Assembly: GCA_023267655.1 (NCBI GenBank)
Contig: JAHFMV010000004.1
Span: forward strand, 10,044-74,043
From: Candidatus Kaiserbacteria bacterium
GTDB lineage: Bacteria > Patescibacteriota > Minisyncoccia > Phycocordibacterales > UBA2100
Length of the DNA stretch: 64,000 bases
Direction of reading: 5' to 3'
The notes under the pieces: generated by a model
The model's input: the letters and a program-made list of their open reading frames with translations, nothing else
Told to the model about the DNA's origin: nothing
Database searches by the model: none
Part shown: in pieces, positions 24,897-52,263 of the stretch
Position numbering within the stretch: the first letter of the stretch is position 1
Layout: the number at the start of each line of letters is the position of its first letter
Translations under genes and position numbers: made by a program

Positions 24897-24936
24897 TTTT
24901 ACTAGAACCTGAAACCGGTAACCTGACACCTATTAC
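24897..24936 (+). repeat. Motif TACTAGAACCT-N10-ACCTGACACCTA (copy 2) in the corA-cysS intergenic region
   Basis: Same plus-strand orientation as the copy at 5228, but here the downstream gene (cysS) is on the minus strand. Confidence 0.75.
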
Positions 24937-25847
24937 TACAGCCACTTTTTATATTTGAAGTACATGAGCATTCCTGTGCCGGCGGCAAGGACGATACATA
25001 TGATTATCCAGAAATCGAACGGACGCCCGAGAATCGGATTGTGTTCGGAATGCACGTTCAAAATGGAAACGAGAAGCGACAGTGGAAACGTGAGGAACGC
25101 CATGATCGTAAGACGGCGCATTGTCTCGCCTTCCTTGGTAGAAAGAAGAGAATTGTTCGTCTCGCGAATTTCATGCAAGGTGTCCGTGAGGCGCATGATA
25201 TGGTTGTGGAGTCGGTAATAATCATTTTCGAGCGCGCGGAGGTATTGCACGAATTCTTCGCCGAAGAATTTCGCTCCGTCGTCAGCAAGTGTCTTTAAAA
25301 TATCGCGATGCGGTTCGATGGTCTGACGCAGGTTCAATACATCGCGTGCACACTGCGAAATCGCGCGGACCATGCGTACTTCGAGCCCCCCGAAAAGATT
25401 GTGCTCGATATGAACAAGATCAGTACGCACAAAATCGAGTTCGTGCTCGACTGCCTTGTAGAGACGGCGAAGCATGTAGAAAAAGAGATATCCCGCGTGC
25501 TCGCCCATCGGGCTTTTGTCCAAGACCGAATTCACCTCGAACACTTTGGAGAATTTGTGCAGAGGATCGATCGTATCGTAGTGCGTCGTGATCAAGAATT
25601 TTTCGCCGACGACAAAATCAACTTCTTGCTCTTCAGTCTTGTGAGCGTGACGTAGGGCAGGGAAGTGCAAAATGACATACAGGTATTTGTCGTGGAATTC
25701 GACGCGTGGCTTTTGCGTGGGTAGCAGTAATTCTTCAGCAACAAAATGATTGAGGCCATATTCGTCCATCACGCGGCGGACTTCGTCCGTTGTCGGATTT
25801 TCAAGGTCGACCCACGTGACGCCGCCGTGTTCATAGCGCGATAACAT
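24936..25847 (-). CDS. CorA-family divalent cation transporter-like protein (GMN motif not conserved)
   Basis: CorA-like soluble N-domain and two C-terminal TM helices. The signature loop reads LNV rather than GMN. Confidence 0.6.
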   Translation of the reverse strand: MLSRYEHGGVTWVDLENPTTDEVRRVMDEYGLNHFVAEELLLPTQKPRVEFHDKYLYVILHFPALRHAHKTEEQEVDFVVGEKFLITTHYDTIDPLHKFSKVFEVNSVLDKSPMGEHAGYLFFYMLRRLYKAVEHELDFVRTDLVHIEHNLFGGLEVRMVRAISQCARDVLNLRQTIEPHRDILKTLADDGAKFFGEEFVQYLRALENDYYRLHNHIMRLTDTLHEIRETNNSLLSTKEGETMRRLTIMAFLTFPLSLLVSILNVHSEHNPILGRPFDFWIIICIVLAAGTGMLMYFKYKKWL

Positions 25848-25852
25848 CTGAA

Positions 25853-25885
25853 TAGTATATAGCCACTAGCCAATAGCCACTAGGG
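25853..25885 (-). repeat. Heptad-repeat element, solo arm, promoter orientation for corA: CCCTA-GTGGCTA-TTGGCTA-GTGGCTA-TATACT-ATTCAG-ATG (locus 3)
   Basis: On the minus strand the three heptads abut TATACT, and 6 nt later the corA ATG (reverse complement of 25845-25847). Confidence 0.85.
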
Positions 25886-25944
25886 ATTACGATACACAGC
25901 TGTGCATTCTTTTAAATTTGAATTACTTGTGCGATACTTGTGCG

Positions 25945-27198
25945 ATGAATATCGAAGGGAAGATGCGCGCACTGATCGCGTCCACCGTTTTTTTGACCGT
26001 CATCGGCTTTGTCAGCGGTTTTGCGATTGGGAGTTCGCATGTCGCGCAAGGAGTTTTGCCCGCATCGGTCGCACAAGCCATCGGCGCCGACCAGCCGCCA
26101 ACCGGCGTTGATTTTTCTCCCGTGTGGAAAGCATGGGCGACTATTAATGATAAATTTGTGCCGGCATCGGTTCCGACGACGACTGCATCGTCATCGCCGC
26201 AAGTAGTGGGCACGCCCGAAGAGCGCCGCGTCTACGGAATGATCCAAGGGCTCGCTGATTCGCTCGGTGATCCATATACCTTTTATCTCCCACCGGTCGA
26301 ACAAAAACAATTCTCTGAAGATTTGAGCGGGGAATTCACGGGCGTCGGCATGGAAATCGCGATCAAGAACGAAATGTTGACCGTCGTGGCGCCGCTCAAG
26401 GGCACGCCAGCCGAGCGTGCGGGCATCAAGCCAGGCGACCTTGTCTTGCAGATCGATGGTGTCGACACGAAAGGTCTCGATATTACCGCTGCTGTTAATC
26501 GCATTCGCGGACCGAAAGGCACAATCGTGACCTTGCATGTCATGCGCGAAGGATGGAAGGAGCCGCAAGACATCAAAGTGACGCGCGATGTCATCAGCGT
26601 GCCGGTTGTGGAGACTGACAAAAAACCGGGCGGCGTGTTCGTGCTCTCGCTGCACAATTTCACCGCCAATTCGCCGGAACTATTCCGCAACGCGATGCGT
26701 GAATTTGTCGAAAGCGGCGACACGAGACTCGTCTTGGATCTGCGCGGGAATCCTGGCGGCTATCTCGAAGCAGCAGTGGATATGGCGAGCTGGTTCTTGC
26801 CGACAGGGAAGGTTGTGGTGACGGAAGATTATGCGGGACACCAAGACAACATTGTGCATCGCTCGCGCGGGTACAATATCTTTAATTCGAATTTGAAAAT
26901 GGTGATTCTTGTCGACAAAGGCTCCGCGTCGGCATCAGAAATTCTCGCCGGAGCTCTGCAACAAAATAAGATCGCACCGCTCGTCGGTACTAATACGTTC
27001 GGCAAGGGCTCAGTGCAAGAATTGGTGCCGATTACGGAGAATACCGGACTCAAGGTCACGGTCGCTCGTTGGCTTGAACCGGATGGCACGCACATCCCGA
27101 CGACCGGTATCACGCCGGATGTGGAAGTAAAAATTCCGGAAGATAATAAACCTCCTGCAGATCCGCAGATGGATAAGGCGCTTGAATTACTAAAATAA
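25945..27198 (+). CDS. ctpA: carboxyl-terminal processing protease (S41 family) with PDZ domain
   Basis: N-terminal TM/signal segment, a PDZ segment, and the S41 catalytic-region motif LVLDLRGNPGGYL, followed by a second conserved motif in the S41 C-terminal part. Confidence 0.85.
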   Translation: MNIEGKMRALIASTVFLTVIGFVSGFAIGSSHVAQGVLPASVAQAIGADQPPTGVDFSPVWKAWATINDKFVPASVPTTTASSSPQVVGTPEERRVYGMIQGLADSLGDPYTFYLPPVEQKQFSEDLSGEFTGVGMEIAIKNEMLTVVAPLKGTPAERAGIKPGDLVLQIDGVDTKGLDITAAVNRIRGPKGTIVTLHVMREGWKEPQDIKVTRDVISVPVVETDKKPGGVFVLSLHNFTANSPELFRNAMREFVESGDTRLVLDLRGNPGGYLEAAVDMASWFLPTGKVVVTEDYAGHQDNIVHRSRGYNIFNSNLKMVILVDKGSASASEILAGALQQNKIAPLVGTNTFGKGSVQELVPITENTGLKVTVARWLEPDGTHIPTTGITPDVEVKIPEDNKPPADPQMDKALELLK

Positions 27199-29373: not shown

Positions 29374-29398
29374 GCGGTATACCGTATACTGTATACGA
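29374..29398. promoter_or_regulatory. Palindrome CGGTATACCG plus (GTATACN)x3 heptad tandem in the rpmA / 29411-gene divergent promoter region
   Basis: GTATAC hexamers at ~29377, 29384 and 29391 with 7-bp periodicity. They lie 24-45 nt upstream of the rpmA ATG on the minus strand. Confidence 0.7.
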
Positions 29399-29410: not shown

Positions 29411-29782
29411 ATGACTAATATACAAGACCAATGGCTAAAAATCAAGAGTGCGGGAGAAGTAGCGCTGGGGGAATGGGGGTTGATCCTGATCGTTCTTTTG
29501 GTCGGCCTTTCGAGCTTTGGGTTAGGGCGTTTATCGGCCACAGAAGCCTCAAAATCAGCCATTTCGGTCTCCCAGGCGCCTCTTGAGGCAGAGCCGAAGG
29601 GAATGGCCATCGGTGGGCTGGTAGAGGCCTCGCGGACGGGTACGGTCTACTACTACCCATGGTGTGGTGGGGCAACGAGCATCAAGCCGGAGAATCAGCT
29701 GTGGTTTAAGACCGAAGACGCTGCAAAGGCAGCGGGGTATGCCGCGGCAAAGAATTGTAAGGGACTCGGGGATAGCCACTAG
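29411..29782 (+). CDS. hypothetical membrane-anchored protein with C-terminal Cys-containing domain (YYYPWCGG...[10 protein letters not shown])
   Basis: N-terminal TM helix. The stop codon lies inside a heptad repeat (..AGC CAC TAG). Start at MTNIQDQ. Confidence 0.5.
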
Positions 29783-29860
29783 CGACTAGCCAATAGTCAC
29801 TAGGGGAAATACAAGACGCATTTCCTAGTCGCTATTGGCTAGTGGCTATATACTGTTCCT
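29773..29860. repeat. Heptad-repeat element, full copy with inverted arms (locus 4): TAGCCAC-TAGCGAC-TAGCCAA-TAGTCAC-TAGGGG...18 nt...CCTA-GTCGCTA-TTGGCTA-GTGGCTA-TATACT-GTTCCT-ATG
   Basis: Four heptads at 29773-29800 and the opposite-orientation arm at 29824-29848. TATACT is 6 nt before the exonuclease gene ATG at 29861. Confidence 0.85.
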
Positions 29861-30454
29861 ATGCTCGTCGTTGACGTTGAAGCTTCAGGAACAGAAGCCC
29901 ACAAGCATTCCATCGTTTCGGTGGGCGCTTTGGATTTGGCGAATCCGACGAATCGTTTTTACGAAGAATGCCGTGTCTGGGACGGCGCACATATCATGGA
30001 TGAGGCACTCGCGGTCAATGGCTTTACTAAAGAGCAGATTACTGATCCGAAGAAACAAAGTGAAGCGGATCTCGTGCACGCATTCATGCATTGGAGCAAG
30101 GATTTACCGGAAAAAACGCTCGCGGGACAAAACGTTTCGTTTGATCGCGATTTCTTGAAATACGCATCGGAGAGAGCAGGGCACACTGAATGGCCATTCG
30201 CCTACCGCACGATTGATACACATACCCTTTGCTACATGCACTACGTGACCCATGGCAAACAACCGCCGGTCATGAAGAATCGTTCCGCCCTGGATCTGGA
30301 CGCCGTCCTTAACTACTGCGGCATTCCCGAGGAACCGCACCCTCACAACGCTCTCACTGGCGCGCTTTCGCACGCGGAAGTCATCTCCCGCCTTCTGTAC
30401 GGTAGGAAACTTCTTCCGGAATTTTCACAGTTTGAAATTCCGTGGAAGAAATAG
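29861..30454 (+). CDS. 3'-5' exonuclease, DEDDh (DnaQ-like) family
   Basis: Exo I motif VVDVEASG, an Exo II-like region, and Exo III H-x4-D (HNALTGALSHAEV). Confidence 0.7.
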   Translation: MLVVDVEASGTEAHKHSIVSVGALDLANPTNRFYEECRVWDGAHIMDEALAVNGFTKEQITDPKKQSEADLVHAFMHWSKDLPEKTLAGQNVSFDRDFLKYASERAGHTEWPFAYRTIDTHTLCYMHYVTHGKQPPVMKNRSALDLDAVLNYCGIPEEPHPHNALTGALSHAEVISRLLYGRKLLPEFSQFEIPWKK

Positions 30455-35573: not shown

Positions 35574-35589
35574 ACGCGGATTCTATTTT

Positions 35590-35617
35590 GAAAATTGAAA
35601 ATTGAAAATTGAAAATT
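35590..35617. repeat. (GAAAATT)x4 perfect heptad tandem, ~20 nt upstream of the gltX start on the minus strand
   Basis: Read directly. On the minus strand: (AATTTTC)4-AAAA-TAGAAT-CCGCGT-ATG. Confidence 0.85.
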
Positions 35618-38752: not shown

Positions 38753-39811
38753 TTACGCCGTAAGTGCGATGATCACGCCAAGAAATGCGAAGACGATCGA
38801 CAAAACCCAATACCGCATGACAACTTTTTCTGGTGGCCAGCCGATAGCTTCGAAATGGTGATGCAAGGGTGCAATACGGAATAACTTGCGTCCAAAAAGA
38901 GATTTCCAAAGCATCTGGAGAATGTTGGATGCGACTGTGACGACGAGGAGCGCGCCGATGATCGGGAGGACGCTGACCCCTACGCCATCGCCGAGGCTAT
39001 CGGTGAGAAATGCGATTACGGGCAGCACGAGTGTGAGCGCCATCGTGCCGGTGTCGCTCATATAAAAGCGCGCGGGCGGGATGTTGAACCAGATAAACGC
39101 AAGGAGACCGCCGACGACTGTCGCACAAAAAGCGGCGAGGTCAATTTGGTTTTGCACGAAAGCGATGATCGCGTACGACGCAAACGCGGATGCGAAGACA
39201 CCGCCGGAGAGGCCGTCGATACCATCAATGACGCCGCTTGCAAAGAGTGCAAGAGAGACTATGATGAAAAACGGGACGATCAGGATTCCCATTTCAATCG
39301 GCGCACCGAATGGATTGTTGATCGCATGCACGTCGAGTTTGTCATAAAACCACCAGCCGATCGCGAGCGAAAGCAGCGCAACGAGGATGAGACGGTAGCG
39401 GAGACGCAGCCCCGAGCCTCCCGGACGGATGATATAGATGTCGTCGATAAAACCAATCGCGGCACCGATGAGAAATGTTGCAAACGGTACCCATGTCTGG
39501 CTACGGCTTAAGAAATCAAGCTGTTCCGAAAACGGCGACGGCGAGAGGGCTGCGATCGATGTAAGGAGTGCGGTCACGATTGCGACCGATCCCCAGACGA
39601 CAACACCACCGAAGCGCGGCGCACGTATTTCGCGGGCTATGTGGAGGCCGTTGAATACTTCGGCGACCGAGCCATCCATCGCGTGTTTGCCACCGTTCTT
39701 TTTCCACGCTTTATATTTGTAGAGATAATGCGTAAGGAGCGGCGTACCGGCGATACCAATAACAAATGAAAGTCCCGCAGGGACAAGTACGCGGACGACG
39801 TCGGAAATCAT
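38753..39811 (-). CDS. mraY: phospho-N-acetylmuramoyl-pentapeptide-transferase
   Basis: MraY family membrane protein, 352 aa, with the conserved cytoplasmic Asp-containing loops. Confidence 0.9.
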   Translation of the reverse strand: MISDVVRVLVPAGLSFVIGIAGTPLLTHYLYKYKAWKKNGGKHAMDGSVAEVFNGLHIAREIRAPRFGGVVVWGSVAIVTALLTSIAALSPSPFSEQLDFLSRSQTWVPFATFLIGAAIGFIDDIYIIRPGGSGLRLRYRLILVALLSLAIGWWFYDKLDVHAINNPFGAPIEMGILIVPFFIIVSLALFASGVIDGIDGLSGGVFASAFASYAIIAFVQNQIDLAAFCATVVGGLLAFIWFNIPPARFYMSDTGTMALTLVLPVIAFLTDSLGDGVGVSVLPIIGALLVVTVASNILQMLWKSLFGRKLFRIAPLHHHFEAIGWPPEKVVMRYWVLSIVFAFLGVIIALTA

Positions 39812-39817
39812 GGGAAC

Positions 39818-39898
39818 AGTATATAGCCACTAGCCACTAGCCACTAGGGGATTTAATTCGTGATTCGCATTTCCCTATTGGCTAACTACTAGTCGCTA
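39818..39898. repeat. Heptad-repeat element, full copy (locus 5): on the minus strand ..AGCGAC-TAG-TAGTT-AGCCAA-TAGGG-22 nt-CCCCTA-(GTGGCTA)x3-TATACT-GTTCCC-ATG(mraY)
   Basis: Three perfect TAGCCAC heptads at 39824-39844, with the other arm at 39873-39898. The stop codon of the upstream gene lies in the repeat (AGC GAC TAG). Confidence 0.85.
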
Positions 39899-41016
39899 AG
39901 AGCTGATTTTTGCGCCGCTGCGACTAACTTTTTTACATCATTGAATCTTGCCTCTGGCGTGGAACCCAAGACAACGACGATCACTGGGTGATCCGCTGCA
40001 GCATTAAACGCGATCGCGAGATTGCCGCCCGCGAGATCGGTTGTGCCCGTCTTTCCCATGATAAGTCCGGGGATGTCGGCGAGTGCGTTGTTCGTATTGC
40101 GTGCGTAGCGCTCGGGAAAATTGATCGGGCCTAACGGTATATTGGTCTCGGCCGTGCCCGTAAAAAGTTCTTTGTGCGAGCGGAGCGCGTACGCGAACAG
40201 TGTCGCGACATCACGTGCGGAGCTTTGCGCGCCCGCTTGCGTCGCGCTCTCATCGAGCCCCGTCGGATTAATAAAATACGTTTCGTGCATGCCGAGCTCT
40301 TGCGCCAGCGCGTTCATCCGCCAGATCGTCGCGTTGCTACGCGTCGCGTCGGGATATTTTGCGGCGAGGAATGGTTCTGCCGTTTCTGCGAGCGCTTCAG
40401 CGCCGGTGTTTGATGACGTGATAAGTGTGTATTCGATCAAATCGCTGACGCGCCATTCTTCGCCCCAGGTCAGTCCCCCACCGCCGCGCGCAACGGCACC
40501 GCGTGAAATCGTGACGGTGCTCGTGGGCGCTAGCACTTCTGCAACAGCAAGTACCGTCGCAACTTTGGTGATCGACGCGAGCGGCAACTGCATACTGCTG
40601 TTTTTCGCGTACAGCTGTTTGTCATTTTGGGCGTCAAAAACATACACGCCCCGCGCAGCTGTTTGGACGCCGCTGAATACGTCGACGTGCGCCTCTGCCG
40701 CAGCGGCCGTTTGCGCTTTTGGCGCTTCTTTTGCCGGTACCGGAAGCATCGCGAGAATAAGTCCCATTCCCCCGATAATGCTTATTATTAGAAAAATCAG
40801 GCCGAAAAGAGCATGCGTCCGCGGCACACCGCCCGTATTTGGCGTAAAATCGTGCACCAGAGGCGCCGCAGAGTTCGCGACGATCTCTGGCAAAGGCGAG
40901 GGTTGAGAAACGTCAAATGGCGTCTTCGGTGATTGAGGTTGATTCTGCGGCATAGTTGTTCTGACTCGCTTCCTGACTGTTTTTAAAAGCGGTGAGTTCA
41001 GGCGCGATTGTACCAT
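39889..41016 (-). CDS. D-alanyl-D-alanine carboxypeptidase (serine-type, PBP5/6-like) with N-terminal TM anchor
   Basis: SxxK (ASITK), SxN (SSN) and KTG-type (GKTG) motifs. N-terminal Pro-rich region and a TM anchor. The true start may be at 40953 (MPQNQ), which would reduce the overlap with scpB. Confidence 0.8.
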   Translation of the reverse strand: MVQSRLNSPLLKTVRKRVRTTMPQNQPQSPKTPFDVSQPSPLPEIVANSAAPLVHDFTPNTGGVPRTHALFGLIFLIISIIGGMGLILAMLPVPAKEAPKAQTAAAAEAHVDVFSGVQTAARGVYVFDAQNDKQLYAKNSSMQLPLASITKVATVLAVAEVLAPTSTVTISRGAVARGGGGLTWGEEWRVSDLIEYTLITSSNTGAEALAETAEPFLAAKYPDATRSNATIWRMNALAQELGMHETYFINPTGLDESATQAGAQSSARDVATLFAYALRSHKELFTGTAETNIPLGPINFPERYARNTNNALADIPGLIMGKTGTTDLAGGNLAIAFNAAADHPVIVVVLGSTPEARFNDVKKLVAAAQKSALSD

Positions 41017-43560: not shown

Positions 43561-43594
43561 ATTTGTGTAAATTCTAAATTTGAAATTTAAAATT

Positions 43595-44533
43595 TTAAAT
43601 TAAACTTACGCCTACTTTCTGTCGCACGTCCGTCATTTTCTTCGCGGCATATTCGCGTGCTTTATCACTTCCCTCTTTCAAGACACGTCGCACTTCGTCA
43701 TCAGTAATTGAATTGCGCTTCTCGCGCATCGGCGCAACGAGGTTCTCTATATCAGCGATCAGCGCTTCTTTCAACGCTTTGTAGCTGCCTTTATTTGCTT
43801 CGTAGATAGTAGCGAGCTCGGATTCGCTTCTGAAATTCTTGTGGATTTGATAGACGTTTTCCGGTCGCTGGCCCGACGAATCCGTCACGATCGACATCAC
43901 GGCTTTTGCAATCTCATCTTTCGAGCCGAACAGTGGGATGGTGTTGCCATAACTCTTTGACATTTTCTTGCCATCGGTTCCCGGGATGATCGCGATTTGT
44001 TTGTTGATCAATTCTTTTGGTTCTTTAAACGTCTCGCCATACGCGTTGTTGAATTTTGCAGCCGCTTCGCGCGCGTATTCCAGATGCTGCCGCTGATCCT
44101 CGCCAACAGGCACAACATCGGTGTCATAGAGCAAAATATCCGCGGCCATGAGCATCGGGTAATTGAAAAGTCCCGCGTTTGCCTCTAATCCTTTTGCGAC
44201 TTTGTCTTTATAGGCGTGTGAGAGTTCCAAAAAAGGCACGGTCACCAGACACTCAAAAATCCACGCCATTTCGGTGTGCTCGTGCACTTGTGATTGCTGG
44301 AAAATGATGCATTTCGACGGCTCAACACCGACCGCCATGTAGTCTTTCACGACGTTGAAAATATTTTGCCGGAGTGCTGCCGGGTCACGCAGCGACGTGA
44401 CGGCGTGATAGTCAGCAACCATCAGGTAGCTTTCGTAGGTATCGTACATTTCGGCAAATGGCTTCAGAACACCAAAATAGTTGCCGATGTGGAGCGCGCC
44501 TGAAGATTGCAGACCCGTGAGAAGCCGTTGCAT
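43595..44533 (-). CDS. trpS: tryptophan--tRNA ligase
   Basis: HIGH as ALHIGNYFG and KMSKS exact. 312 aa. Confidence 0.9.
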   Translation of the reverse strand: MQRLLTGLQSSGALHIGNYFGVLKPFAEMYDTYESYLMVADYHAVTSLRDPAALRQNIFNVVKDYMAVGVEPSKCIIFQQSQVHEHTEMAWIFECLVTVPFLELSHAYKDKVAKGLEANAGLFNYPMLMAADILLYDTDVVPVGEDQRQHLEYAREAAAKFNNAYGETFKEPKELINKQIAIIPGTDGKKMSKSYGNTIPLFGSKDEIAKAVMSIVTDSSGQRPENVYQIHKNFRSESELATIYEANKGSYKALKEALIADIENLVAPMREKRNSITDDEVRRVLKEGSDKAREYAAKKMTDVRQKVGVSLI

Positions 44534-49567: not shown

Positions 49568-49900
49568 TTACCAAGAGTTGCGTCGTCCGCCTCCGCCGCC
49601 ACCTCCGCCCCAGTCGCCACCACCACCGCGATTGTCGCGGCGAGGGCGCTCCTCGAGAGGACGAGCTTCGTTGACCGTGAGCGTGCGTCCGCCGAAATCC
49701 TTGCCATTCCACATGTCGATCGCTTTTGTAGCGTCTTCATCGGCTGAGAATTCGACGAAACCAAATCCTTTCGATCGGCCGCTCATCTTATCCATGATGA
49801 TAACAGCAGATGATACAGATCCGGCTTGCGCAAACGCTTCCTTGAGCTGATCGTCCGTGGTTGAGTACGGAAGGCCGCCCACATATAACTTCTTTGCCAT
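49568..49900 (-). CDS. RRM-type RNA-binding protein with Gly-rich C-terminus
   Basis: RNP-2 LYVGGL and RNP-1 KGFGFVEF motifs, with a C-terminal RGG/Gly-rich tail. 110 aa. Confidence 0.85.
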   Translation of the reverse strand: MAKKLYVGGLPYSTTDDQLKEAFAQAGSVSSAVIIMDKMSGRSKGFGFVEFSADEDATKAIDMWNGKDFGGRTLTVNEARPLEERPRRDNRGGGGDWGGGGGGGGRRNSW

Positions 49901-50744: not shown

Positions 50745-51713
50745 TTATCCCTTCGCCAACCCCACCGCATGCTCCAAAAACCCCTTAACAGAACTCCCCA
50801 CACTCTCCAACATCTTTGGAAATGATGCATGTTCATGCAACCCCGGCAGTGAATTGACCTCCAGCAGATATGGCCCGCGGTTGGTGACGATAAAATCAGA
50901 GCGTGAGAAGTCAGAAAGTCCAAGCGCGCGGTGCGCGTGTTTTGCCATACTAATGAGTTCTTTTTTGTGCTTCATTGAAAAGTCGCTCGGCACGAGATGG
51001 TGATGGCCGCCTTGCATGTGATGCGCAAAATGCAGGATTTCTGCATTGTCGGGCACTACGATATGTACCGGTGGGAGCGCGTACACTTCTTCGTTGCGAA
51101 AATCTTCGATTATGCCGACTGTTGCGTCTTCACCCACGAGATATTCTTCAACGATTGCTGCGCCAAAAGTATCGAGTACATCTGCGAGCACCTGTGGAAG
51201 ATCGACAACGGACGCGGCAATCAAGATGCCGTTGGATGCGCCCTCAAGCGGAGGCTTCACTATGTACGGCGGGCCAAATTCTGAAAAGACGAGTCGCGCC
51301 ATTTCGCCGGTATCCATTGAGCTGCGGGCGACAAACGACGCGCTGCGCGGCATGCGGAGCCCCGCGTGACGCAAGACTTCGGTCGCGCGGACTTTATTCA
51401 AAGAGAGCGCGCTCGGAAGCGGCGCGGACCCGGCATACGGGACGCCAAGGCGATCAAGAATTCTCTGCACGGTGCCGTCTTCACCGATGCCGCCATGGAG
51501 TCCGCTTACAACAATGTCAATTTGTTGGAGTGCGCGCGCCGGATCCACGGGCATGCCGCGTGAATGCCACAGGCCGCTTTTATCAATCAAAATATCGCGC
51601 GTGTCGTACTGTTCTTCCGGTAGTGCATTCAAAATTGCAGCGCCCGTCTTGAGTGAGAGGTCGTACTCACTCGAAGTTCCCCCTCTCAAAACACCAACAA
51701 TGGTGCGTGCCAT
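50745..51713 (-). CDS. ddl: D-alanine--D-alanine ligase
   Basis: ATP-grasp fold with Ddl-family conservation. 322 aa. Confidence 0.9.
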   Translation of the reverse strand: MARTIVGVLRGGTSSEYDLSLKTGAAILNALPEEQYDTRDILIDKSGLWHSRGMPVDPARALQQIDIVVSGLHGGIGEDGTVQRILDRLGVPYAGSAPLPSALSLNKVRATEVLRHAGLRMPRSASFVARSSMDTGEMARLVFSEFGPPYIVKPPLEGASNGILIAASVVDLPQVLADVLDTFGAAIVEEYLVGEDATVGIIEDFRNEEVYALPPVHIVVPDNAEILHFAHHMQGGHHHLVPSDFSMKHKKELISMAKHAHRALGLSDFSRSDFIVTNRGPYLLEVNSLPGLHEHASFPKMLESVGSSVKGFLEHAVGLAKG

Positions 51714-51719
51714 CTGAAT

Positions 51720-51751
51720 AGTATATAGCCACTAGCGACTAGCCACTAGGG
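51720..51751 (-). repeat. Heptad-repeat element, solo arm, promoter orientation for ddl: CCCTA-GTGGCTA-GTCGCTA-GTGGCTA-TATACT-ATTCAG-ATG (locus 6)
   Basis: Heptads at 51726-51746 with TAGGG at 51747-51751. The TATACT-ATTCAG-ATG tail is identical to the corA locus. Confidence 0.85.
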
Positions 51752-51786
51752 AGATGCACGGATAAGAACCGGATTTCGTATCGTGG

Positions 51787-52263
51787 CTACTCTGATGTCG
51801 AACTTGCCATACCGTCCACGCCCACGCGATCCTTAAATTCCTTCCCAATCGGTATCACAAACATTTTCGGATCAAGATTCCACACCCGTTTACAGCGTGA
51901 AATTTTGAAAAGATTAGCTTCCGTGGACGAATCGCCAAGATTGAAAACACTCTTTTGTGCAAAGTCGACGTTGTCTGCCCACGTATATGCGGAGCCGTCT
52001 TCGTACACGATCGTGTGGAGGTTTGCCGCAGTTCCCTCACCTTCTATCTTGTAATCTGCACGCAAGCGGCCTTGGCCAACGTACATTGTGCCAGAGAGAC
52101 CTTTCACGCTGGCGTCACCGATCGTGCACTGCATCGTCGGAAGCGAGAGGAATTGATCCCACGTACGGAGCGCACCGACATCGGGCACCCAGAACCAATA
52201 ACCGGTAAGGATGACCGCGATTACGATAAGGACTCCAATGACGATTGAGGCGGTGTTTTTCAT
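51787..52263 (-). CDS. hypothetical membrane-anchored protein (158 aa)
   Basis: N-terminal TM helix followed by a soluble domain. No recognisable motif. Confidence 0.45.
   Translation of the reverse strand: MKNTASIVIGVLIVIAVILTGYWFWVPDVGALRTWDQFLSLPTMQCTIGDASVKGLSGTMYVGQGRLRADYKIEGEGTAANLHTIVYEDGSAYTWADNVDFAQKSVFNLGDSSTEANLFKISRCKRVWNLDPKMFVIPIGKEFKDRVGVDGMASSTSE

Follow-up and report, generated by a model that had tools for sequence, protein, structure and literature searches.

In a 64-kb stretch of DNA from Candidatus Kaiserbacteria (hereafter the window), a tiny uncultured bacterium of the Candidate Phyla Radiation (CPR), tandem 7-nt repeats (heptads) of the type TAGCCAC lie between genes at six loci, one of them directly upstream of a DEDDh exonuclease gene. 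With about even confidence, we read these heptads as a gene-boundary module of fixed geometry that would combine stop codons in all frames, a hairpin and the upstream half of a leaderless promoter, and that is a lineage-specific member of a known repeat class. In the proposed mechanism, many genes of the organism would be transcribed as leaderless mRNAs from a -10 box located 6–7 nt before the ATG, as the sequence pattern and its conservation among orthologues suggest. The promoter-proximal heptad arm, CCCTAG(TGGCTAG)2TGGCTA, with exactly three heptads at -38 to -13, would most likely form the upstream half of such a promoter. Between co-directional genes, an inverted copy on the far side presents TAG in every frame, and the upstream open reading frame (ORF) ends on one of them. 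This inverted copy is predicted to pair with the proximal arm in read-through RNA, and the resulting hairpin would probably end or stabilise the upstream transcript and insulate the two genes. The -10 box and the ATG would be a property of the gene, not of the repeat.

A degenerate two-heptad pattern (TAGCSAMTAGCSAM, at most 1 mismatch allowed) matched the window 17 times against 0.20 matches expected from shuffles, and a count of 17 was reached in 0 of 100 shuffles. Tandem Repeats Finder (TRF) reported period-7 arrays of 3.4–4.4 copies at all six TAGCSAM loci. Eight strict tandem arrays have a period of 7, compared with 0–2 for each of the periods 5, 6, 8 and 9, and a period-7 score of at least 11/14 is reached in 10 of the ~45 intergenic regions. 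All period-7 arrays lie within or at the edge of non-coding DNA, which makes up 10% of the window. In addition to the TAGCCAC family, the heptads fall into AATTTTC (three loci), CTAGAAC (two), TAAATTT (one) and GTATACC (one) families. The GC-rich units TAGCCAC, TAGCGAC, TAGTCAC, TAGGGNN and CTAGAAC share one invariant, a (C)TAG every 7 nt.

The six TAGCSAM loci listed in an earlier note on this DNA were all recovered in place, as were the three loci that it described as having inverted arms (before the exonuclease, atpH and mraY genes; Table 1); a fourth locus, at 51726, carries a lone inverted heptad. Pfam matches bear out the gene labels given in the note, namely atpF, atpH (OSCP), CorA, MraY-type GT4, S11 DD-carboxypeptidase, Ddl and RNase_T/DEDDh exonuclease. 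The note had further stated that the arrays read (GTGGCTA)n–TATACT/ATTACT–N6–ATG towards their genes, and this holds for five of them: the TATACT form is exact at 29849–29863 (+), 25845–25859 (-), 39809–39823 (-) and 51711–51725 (-), and the atpH junction reads ATTACT-ATTCCT-ATG (4866–4880). The exception is the copy at 1400, which is reversed, has a degenerate box and feeds no gene, its GTGGCTA strand being directed into the 3' end of the AdoHcyase gene. Similarly, the heptads are followed by TAGGG as described, except at 4786, where the left arm runs into TAGAAC. Alignment of the proximal arms yielded a 42-nt consensus, CCCTAG TGGCTAK TSGCTAG TGGCTA TATACT RTTCMN ATG, common to the copies before the exonuclease, mraY, ddl and corA genes. 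The atpH copy is a variant, with a right arm composed of two 14-mers (CCCTATTGGCTAAA), and the corA copy sits between divergent genes.

Table 1. Positions of the heptad arrays and their parts in the window.
Feature	Position	Strand	Description
Focal distal (left) arm	29773–29805	+	TAGCCAC TAGCGAC TAGCCAA TAGTCAC TAGGG; upstream ORF stops on the second TAG, 29780–29782
Focal hairpin loop/spacer	29806–29821	+	Differs between copies
Focal proximal (right) arm	29822–29848	+	TTCCTAG TCGCTAT TGGCTAG TGGCTA, three heptads
Exonuclease start	29849–29863	+	TATACT 29849–29854, spacer GTTCCT, ATG; DEDDh/RNase_T gene 29861–30454
atpF/atpH copy	4786–4880	+	Left arm 4786–4809, atpF stop 4793–4795, spacer, right arm 4840–4865, ATTACT 4866–4871, ATG 4878
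corA copy, single arm	25845–25887	-	CCCTAG TGGCTAT TGGCTAG TGGCTA, TATACT 25854–25859, ATTCAG, ATG 25845–25847
DD-carboxypeptidase/mraY copy	39809–39899	-	Distal arm 39873–39899 (stop 39889–39891), proximal arm 39824–39848, TATACT 39818–39823, GTTCCC, ATG 39809–39811
ddl copy	51711–51789	-	Proximal arm 51726–51751, TATACT 51720–51725, ATTCAG, ATG 51711–51713; inverted heptad 51783–51789
Reversed single arm	1400–1427	+	Between AdoHcyase (stop 1387–1389) and DUF1653 gene (ATG 1435); AACAACT
AATTTTC family, inverted pair (AATTTTC)n/(GAAAATT)n	4234–4343	+	Between atpE (stop TAA joins array) and atpF
AATTTTC family, inverted pair	9793–9886	+	Between atpD (stop TAA joins array) and atpC; TAAATT-N7-ATG inside right arm
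AATTTTC family, single arm (AATTTTC)4	35580–35617	-	Adjoins TAGAAT-N6-ATG of gene starting 35573
Third family, CTAGAAC/CTAGTAC/CTGACAC	5230–5260	+	Between atpH (stop TAG 5238–5240 within array) and atpA
Third family, second copy	24902–24930	-	Between corA stop and cysS-like gene start
Fourth family, (TAAATTT)n	43568–43601	-	Fills the 34-nt gap of two co-directional genes

The -10 part of this arrangement extends well beyond the repeats. TANNNT is found 5–8 nt before the ATG in 21 of the 64 genes (at exactly N6 in 14), compared with 2.1% of internal in-frame ATGs, and a Shine–Dalgarno-like motif is found in 2 of the 64. Because about a third of the genes are built alike, the -10–N6–ATG arrangement appears to be a genome-wide leaderless layout, of which TATACT–N6–ATG would be an ordinary case rather than the repeat's own property. 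The same layout fits the proposal of the earlier note that the transcript would begin at or next to the start codon, the predicted start falling on the A of the ATG. A leaderless bacterial promoter layout of this kind has been modelled in GeneMarkS-2 (PMC6028130). As expected for a leaderless sigma-70-type promoter, TANNNT ends 6–7 nt before the start at the heptad copies (TATACT–N6–ATG in four, ATTACT–N6–ATG in one), and both box and distance are kept in most of the sampled exonuclease, mraY and corA orthologues; orthologues without a clear -10 box were seen in L158, L160 and L165 and at the mraY genes of L163 and L167. Boxes without heptads are usually of the extended TGn type (T in 10 of 17 and G in 11 of 17 at -3 and -2), and a conserved -35 is absent. 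TATACT makes up 5 of the 21 boxes, of which 4 adjoin heptads (hypergeometric p ~8e-4); gene 60223 reads TATACT-GGTTCC-ATG with heptads absent. Leaderless-type starts are also seen at, for example, 10187, 11719, 20514, 32304, 36765, 44533, 46424, 57431 and 61761. To our knowledge, experimental data on how transcription is initiated and ended in CPR/Patescibacteria are almost nil.

Relative to this common layout, the proximal arm is strikingly regular. In the five window copies, it comprises three units (3.4 TRF copies) set in the same register relative to TATACT, and both features recur in L105, a Candidatus Kaiserbacteria metagenome-assembled genome that is syntenic with the window (protein identity of 63–79% over six genes), and in 7 further loci from metagenomes, all distinct and spread over four genes (GC content 40–59%), where the count is partly ascertained by the search pattern, as discussed below. 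The arm abuts the -10 box despite spare room in the spacer (97 nt at corA, 73 nt at ddl), and it also occurs without an inverted partner (corA, L123 and L126). Its three heptads amount to 21 bp, or two helical turns, and the block takes the place of the TGn context seen at other promoters of the genome. The promoter-proximal arm is not a free microsatellite, and its position and register suggest that the three-heptad block is most likely an upstream promoter element of fixed geometry. We considered whether the TAGCCAC heptads supply a -35 box and rejected this, as TAGTGG, at a spacing of 17 nt, agrees in only 2/6 positions and the better TTGGCT lies just 8 nt from the -10 box. A scan-positive -35 is provided by heptads in the AATTTTC family only, where the 35573 gene has a -35-like TTTTCA at 17 nt spacing.

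The distal arm is complementary to the proximal one. It carries TAG in all three frames, and, in agreement with the earlier note, a heptad TAG ends atpF, the 29411 gene and the DD-carboxypeptidase gene; the gene upstream of ddl likewise ends on a heptad TAG (51787–51789), which adds a fourth case. As a general account of heptamer repeats, all-frame stops were rejected: they apply to the window's TAG, TGA and TAA units and fail for GTATACC. The account also fails for the CCCCAGT and GGGAATC units known elsewhere. Among inverted repeats in the window, the heptad pairs are the longest, headed by the AATTTTC pair at 9793–9886, and folding of the full copies, a check proposed in the earlier note, returned long predicted hairpins for complete copies. 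The focal hairpin (29765–29865) reaches -48.5 kcal/mol (z = -8.2) and the mraY hairpin -30.5 kcal/mol (z = -3.3); the AATTTTC hairpins have z-scores of -4.1 and -6.4, and orthologous copies of the element range from -3.2 to -4.6. A consensus stem is kept in 5 species, with a predicted length of 20–35 bp. The stable, G+C-rich hairpin is what an intrinsic terminator would have.

The hairpin might instead serve translation: a terminating ribosome would melt the stem and free the next start codon, or be handed over to it, in an organism poor in Shine–Dalgarno motifs. The element spans exactly the distance from stop to start codon, heptad arrays occupy four junctions of the atp operon, and the predicted stems approach the AUG to within 0–2 nt in the window, L131, L125 and L165. 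RNAalifold, moreover, marked 4 base pairs at the foot of the stem as changed on both sides, hinting at covariation of the last upstream codons with the -10-to-ATG spacer. This candidate covariation was not significant in a duplex test, in which cognate ORF ends and spacers paired at -5.58 kcal/mol and non-cognate ones at -5.40 kcal/mol, and 112 of 265 derangements did as well. Moreover, single-arm copies are unable to form the stem, and a -10 box placed immediately 5' of the ATG would be expected to yield a leaderless transcript separate from the upstream one. We regard such coupling as very improbable.

Two samples of relatives bear on whether the promoter and the heptads belong together. The first was selected by pattern, with a metagenome scan for the 24-mer GCTAKTSGCTAGTGGCTATATACT that returned 11 stretches. 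Eight of these represent the orthologous spacer between an Ada-like gene and the exonuclease gene, in four distinct sequences (exonuclease 70–86% identical, GC content 47–57%), each of which is built from a TAGCCAM-type left arm, an unrelated spacer, three heptads, TATACT, N6 or N7, and ATG. The other three come from genomes with GC contents of 40–59% and have the 24-mer in front of other genes, one methyltransferase-like, one thioredoxin-reductase-like and one of unknown type; in one of them, L126, the arm is placed directly after a canonical terminator. The second, unselected sample consisted of homologues of the exonuclease with 84–96% identity, together with their contigs. No TAGCCAC heptads were found upstream of the exonuclease, mraY and corA genes in L156, L158, L160, L161, L163, L164, L166 and L167, although most of the unselected relatives carry a -10 box (TACAAT, TATACT, TAGAAT or TATAAT) at N6/7. 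The -10–N6/7–ATG arrangement is kept without heptads among orthologues of L156, L161, L163, L164, L166, L167, L131 and L133, including nearly the window sequence at mraY of L164 (TATACT-GTTCGCC-ATG) and at corA of L131 (TATACT-ACTCAG-ATG), as well as TATACT–N6/7–ATG at the exonuclease genes of L161 and L166. The predicted promoter is thus resident and old, not carried by the element.

The heptads themselves are lineage-specific and, judged from these comparisons, have been gained, lost or replaced. Relatives contain 0–1 period-7 arrays per 20 kb. In the closest relative, L165 (exonuclease 96% identical), the orthologous intergenic site (1225–1322) holds an inverted heptad hairpin with the unit TAGCTKC/GAGCTTC, indicating that the heptad unit is swapped at a conserved position; TATACT is absent there, and the ATG directly follows the arm. 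Strain-level variation in copy number was also considered, but three other contigs with an identical exonuclease represent the same strain and have an identical element. By name, the nearest homologues of the window exonuclease belong to Parcubacteria, Paceibacterota or Patescibacteria. In L158 (9819–9998) and L160 (9819–10004), short called ORFs of 59 and 61 aa with no Pfam matches lie directly 5' of the exonuclease gene, in the place of the window's Ada-like gene and heptad element, a gap that seems prone to doubtful gene calls.

The earlier note had interpreted the arrays as a mobile promoter/terminator cassette, a miniature inverted-repeat transposable element (MITE)-like unit that carries its own TATACT, inserts between genes, remodels their 3' ends and drives the downstream gene. 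One part of this view is supported, as the proximal arm together with TATACT recurs as a conserved dispersed repeat of 42 nt: arm, TATACT and RTTCMN spacer are conserved in five copies, TATACT is enriched beside heptads, the same 24-mer precedes different genes in other species, and corA, mraY and exonuclease genes show presence/absence polymorphism. The MITE comparison does not hold, as conserved internal sequence, distinct terminal repeats and target-site duplication are all absent. The sole inverted parts are the heptad arrays, whose spacers (16–30 nt) are unalignable, and the flanks (GGGGA...TATACT and AGGGTC...ATTACT) contain no direct repeat. Nor are there clean filled and empty sites, since the two differ by replacement of the entire spacer, with a -10 box in both, and the closest relative, L165, has another heptad unit at this position. 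That the element "carries" the promoter is also too strong, given that the sites without heptads at L131 corA, L164 mraY and L161 and L166 exonuclease, like window gene 60223, already have TATACT. No transposase was identified in the 64-kb window. A mobile cassette is therefore, in our view, distinctly improbable. The arrays resemble repetitive extragenic palindromic (REP) sequences, bacterial interspersed mosaic elements (BIMEs) and MITEs in being dispersed, short, extragenic hairpin repeats between genes or in operons and possible transcript stabilisers or terminators, but differ from them in that their arms are tandem heptads of variable composition.

The window heptads belong to an already described class, that of intergenic tandem heptanucleotide repeats, as lineage-specific representatives whose arrangement is unusually fixed and regular. 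Head-to-tail 7-nt units, a period-7 excess, an intergenic site and several loci and families are all present, and slippage-type variation in copy number is the only feature of the class that is missing, with three units in the proximal arms of the window and of the 7 other distinct loci. Heptamers are an over-represented class of long simple sequence repeats (SSRs) in many bacteria, and slippage has been suggested as their origin (Mrazek 2007, as cited in PMC4679880 and PMC4692102). The long SSRs, the short tandemly repeated repetitive (STRR) sequences of Calothrix and Nostoc, and further Nostoc repeats share with the window the head-to-tail 7-nt unit, several families per genome and the period-7 excess (PMC4692102; PMC4679880; bioRxiv 10.1101/2022.06.06.494920). 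Like the window arrays, they are strongly intergenic, often lie within ~30–100 nt of a start codon or -10 box and also occur inside operons. The Nostoc repeats (TTTTGAA)n and (GACYAAT)n occur close to -10 boxes and start codons, and regulation changes when they are deleted (bioRxiv 10.1101/2022.06.06.494920). The window differs from this class in the fixed number of three units, the register against the -10 box, the mixture of CCAC, CGAC and CCAA units, the inverted partner array that holds the upstream stop, and the CPR host with leaderless genes.

Two further families are close in some respects. TAACTGA direct repeats are found in marine Beggiatoaceae, cyanobacteria and Bacteroidetes, mostly just 5' of starts at which ribosome-binding sites are rare (MacGregor 2015, PMC4679880). 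As in the window, 2–6 copies lie a few nt before the starts of housekeeping genes of no common function, and the unit contains stop triplets (PMC4679880). However, nearly all of them are direct (one inverted case), and they were proposed to act on translation in the 5' untranslated region (PMC4679880), whereas the window arrays lie upstream of the predicted transcript start, and inverted pairs account for half of them. The GGGAATC repeats of Xanthomonas are intergenic, with typically ~4 units (Rehm et al. 2015, PMC4692102). Some of them form inverted pairs able to fold into stem-loops, and related species retain the repeats between the same genes, with differences in length and sequence (PMC4692102). 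They are, however, G-rich, quadruplex-forming and 2–26 units long (PMC4692102); the window units are not G-rich and have a fixed length. No match to TAGCCACTAGCCAC or the TAGCCAC array was found in the published literature searched. The statement of the earlier note that this is not a named element stands for the sequence family but not for the class, which had already been described (PMC4679880, PMC4692102, bioRxiv 10.1101/2022.06.06.494920). What is new relative to that class is a fixed-length, promoter-abutting and often inverted form in a CPR lineage with leaderless genes.

With one genome taken per species, 21-mers of the (TAGCCAC) type occur in at least 119 stretches from many phyla, with 3 to >20 units among the matches listed for (TAGCCAC)n. 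Horizontal transfer across phyla was considered and is not needed to account for them. Composition-matched control heptads also form perfect 3-unit arrays in viral contigs (3, 5 and 4 stretches versus 10 for TAGCCAC), and the genomes with TAGCCAC arrays are rich in other period-7 arrays, with 134 in 824 kb compared with 41 of period 6 and 8 of period 8. The cross-phylum matches can therefore be seen as independent instances of a general heptamer phenomenon. The Bacteroidetes genome RA.bin61, Chamaesiphon and Brevundimonas have (TAGCCAC)n at many loci, also as inverted pairs. Many (TAGCCAC)n matches in L004–L122 lie no more than 50 bases from a contig end, and we take it from this clustering that assemblies break at such arrays.

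These observations raise the question of whether the heptads have any function. Non-functional or selfish repeats that arise and spread by replication slippage and recombination, and are tolerated only in the few bases separating a stop from a -10 box, would owe their position and orientation to purifying selection. The slippage origin proposed for heptamers (Mrazek 2007, to the extent cited in PMC4679880 and PMC4692102), the arrays formed by control heptads, the abundance of other period-7 arrays in the genomes with TAGCCAC arrays, the relatives whose orthologous genes lack heptads and the different unit at the same site in L165 are all consistent with this. Tolerance alone would not lead one to expect a constant three units in one register against TATACT (chance ~(1/7)^4), an arm that adjoins the -10 box although the spacer has room, or an exact 24-mer kept before different genes in genomes of 40–59% GC. 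We consider non-functional repeats fairly unlikely.

A further possibility is that the arrays bind a heptad-reading protein, either on DNA (omega/ParB-like) or on RNA (HutP-like or RNA recognition motif (RRM)-like), and that the heptad genes form its regulon. HutP acts on RNA of the form (UAG-N4)3. The omega/ParB protein of plasmid pSM19035 is a ribbon–helix–helix (RHH) protein with the unit WATCACW. It reads contiguous 7-bp repeats, direct and inverted, at promoters (PMC9499535), and the window arrays have the same architecture beside their promoters. By analogy, omega/ParB is the closest protein-binding precedent and illustrates that arrays of this kind can be read by a protein. The exact sequence and fixed three-unit count kept across species and the invariant (C)TAG every 7 nt would also suit a binding array, and the study of Nostoc heptamer repeats proposes an unidentified binding partner (bioRxiv 10.1101/2022.06.06.494920). 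One possible candidate for such a reader is encoded in the window at 49568–49900 (-), a protein of 110 aa in which a strong RRM_1 motif (E = 8.5e-24) is present. Among bacteria, RRM proteins are typically found in cyanobacteria, where heptamer repeats abound as well. Against a dedicated reader, the window unit is unlike WATCACW, and no RHH or HutP-like protein was found among 20 small or unassigned window proteins, whereas pSM19035 is plasmid-borne with its cognate RHH gene adjacent. In addition, the unit is swapped at the same site in L165, and four unrelated heptad units have the same layout, which favours structure rather than a single reader. A binding array thus seems to us quite unlikely.

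A more far-reaching reading would treat CCCTAG(TGGCTAG)2TGGCTA as a distinct upstream promoter element of Kaiserbacteria-like CPR bacteria that replaces -35 and extended -10 contacts at leaderless genes, is read by a dedicated factor and defines a housekeeping regulon (ATP synthase, mraY, ddl, corA and exonuclease), with the inverted partner as terminator or attenuator of the upstream gene. We offer this as speculation that is quite unlikely to be correct; if it were, the factor would recognise the block on DNA in the manner of omega or, through the UAG-N4 repeats of read-through RNA, in the manner of HutP or RRM proteins.

Several observations weigh against the gene-boundary module that we prefer. 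The proximal arm has neither a recognisable -35 nor TGn, and a consensus scan does not call it. A U-tract after the stem is absent, the stem being followed by UAUACUGUUCCU, and the terminator scan of the window calls no heptad hairpin, the loops being too large for that scan. Folding is weak for the atpH copy (z = -1.3) and for L124 (z = -0.7). The fixed three-unit count in metagenome matches is partly ascertained, since the GCTAKTSGCTAGTGGCTATATACT pattern needs 2.5 units, though it sets no maximum. The heptads are also dispensable, because close relatives lack them at the same genes. Finally, the promoter and terminator roles are a proposal drawn from sequence.

In favour of the module, three further heptad families in the window have the same stop–array–start layout (Table 1): the upstream stop falls at the opening units or within them, the spacer consists of the array or inverted pair, and the next start follows a few bases on. 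A fifth unit forms a (GTATACY)3 array with TATACT at 29377–29396, between the divergent rpmA (L27) and 29411 genes; since it lies 22 nt from the ATG of the 29411 gene, it does not match the N6 layout. The function of heptamer repeats in bacteria has been a standing question since 1990, and this locus is an unusually clean case, with fixed length and register, leaderless starts, with/without comparisons at the same genes and a unit swap. It lends itself to a test of whether such arrays influence promoters, termination or neither. For annotation, heptad arrays are places where spurious ORFs and wrong starts are called and where assemblies break.

The ATP synthase cluster (3039–10136) has heptad arrays at the atpE/F, atpF/H, atpH/A and atpD/C junctions. 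It also encodes a short delta subunit of 120 aa that matches the C-terminal two-thirds of OSCP only, and an extra 95-aa ORF of unknown family lies between atpG and atpD (8057–8344). An Rfam search of the window at gathering thresholds found only a tRNA-Ala. Beyond the corA heptad arm, on its opposite side, a perfect 11-nt direct repeat (TACTTGTGCGA, two copies, 25924–25946) covers the GATACT–N6–ATG start of an S41 peptidase gene. A perfect 17-nt inverted repeat (TCCCTTACATTGCGACA / TGTCGCAATGTAAGGGA, 2-nt loop) is located at 10–45, just 5' of the AdoHcyase start region.

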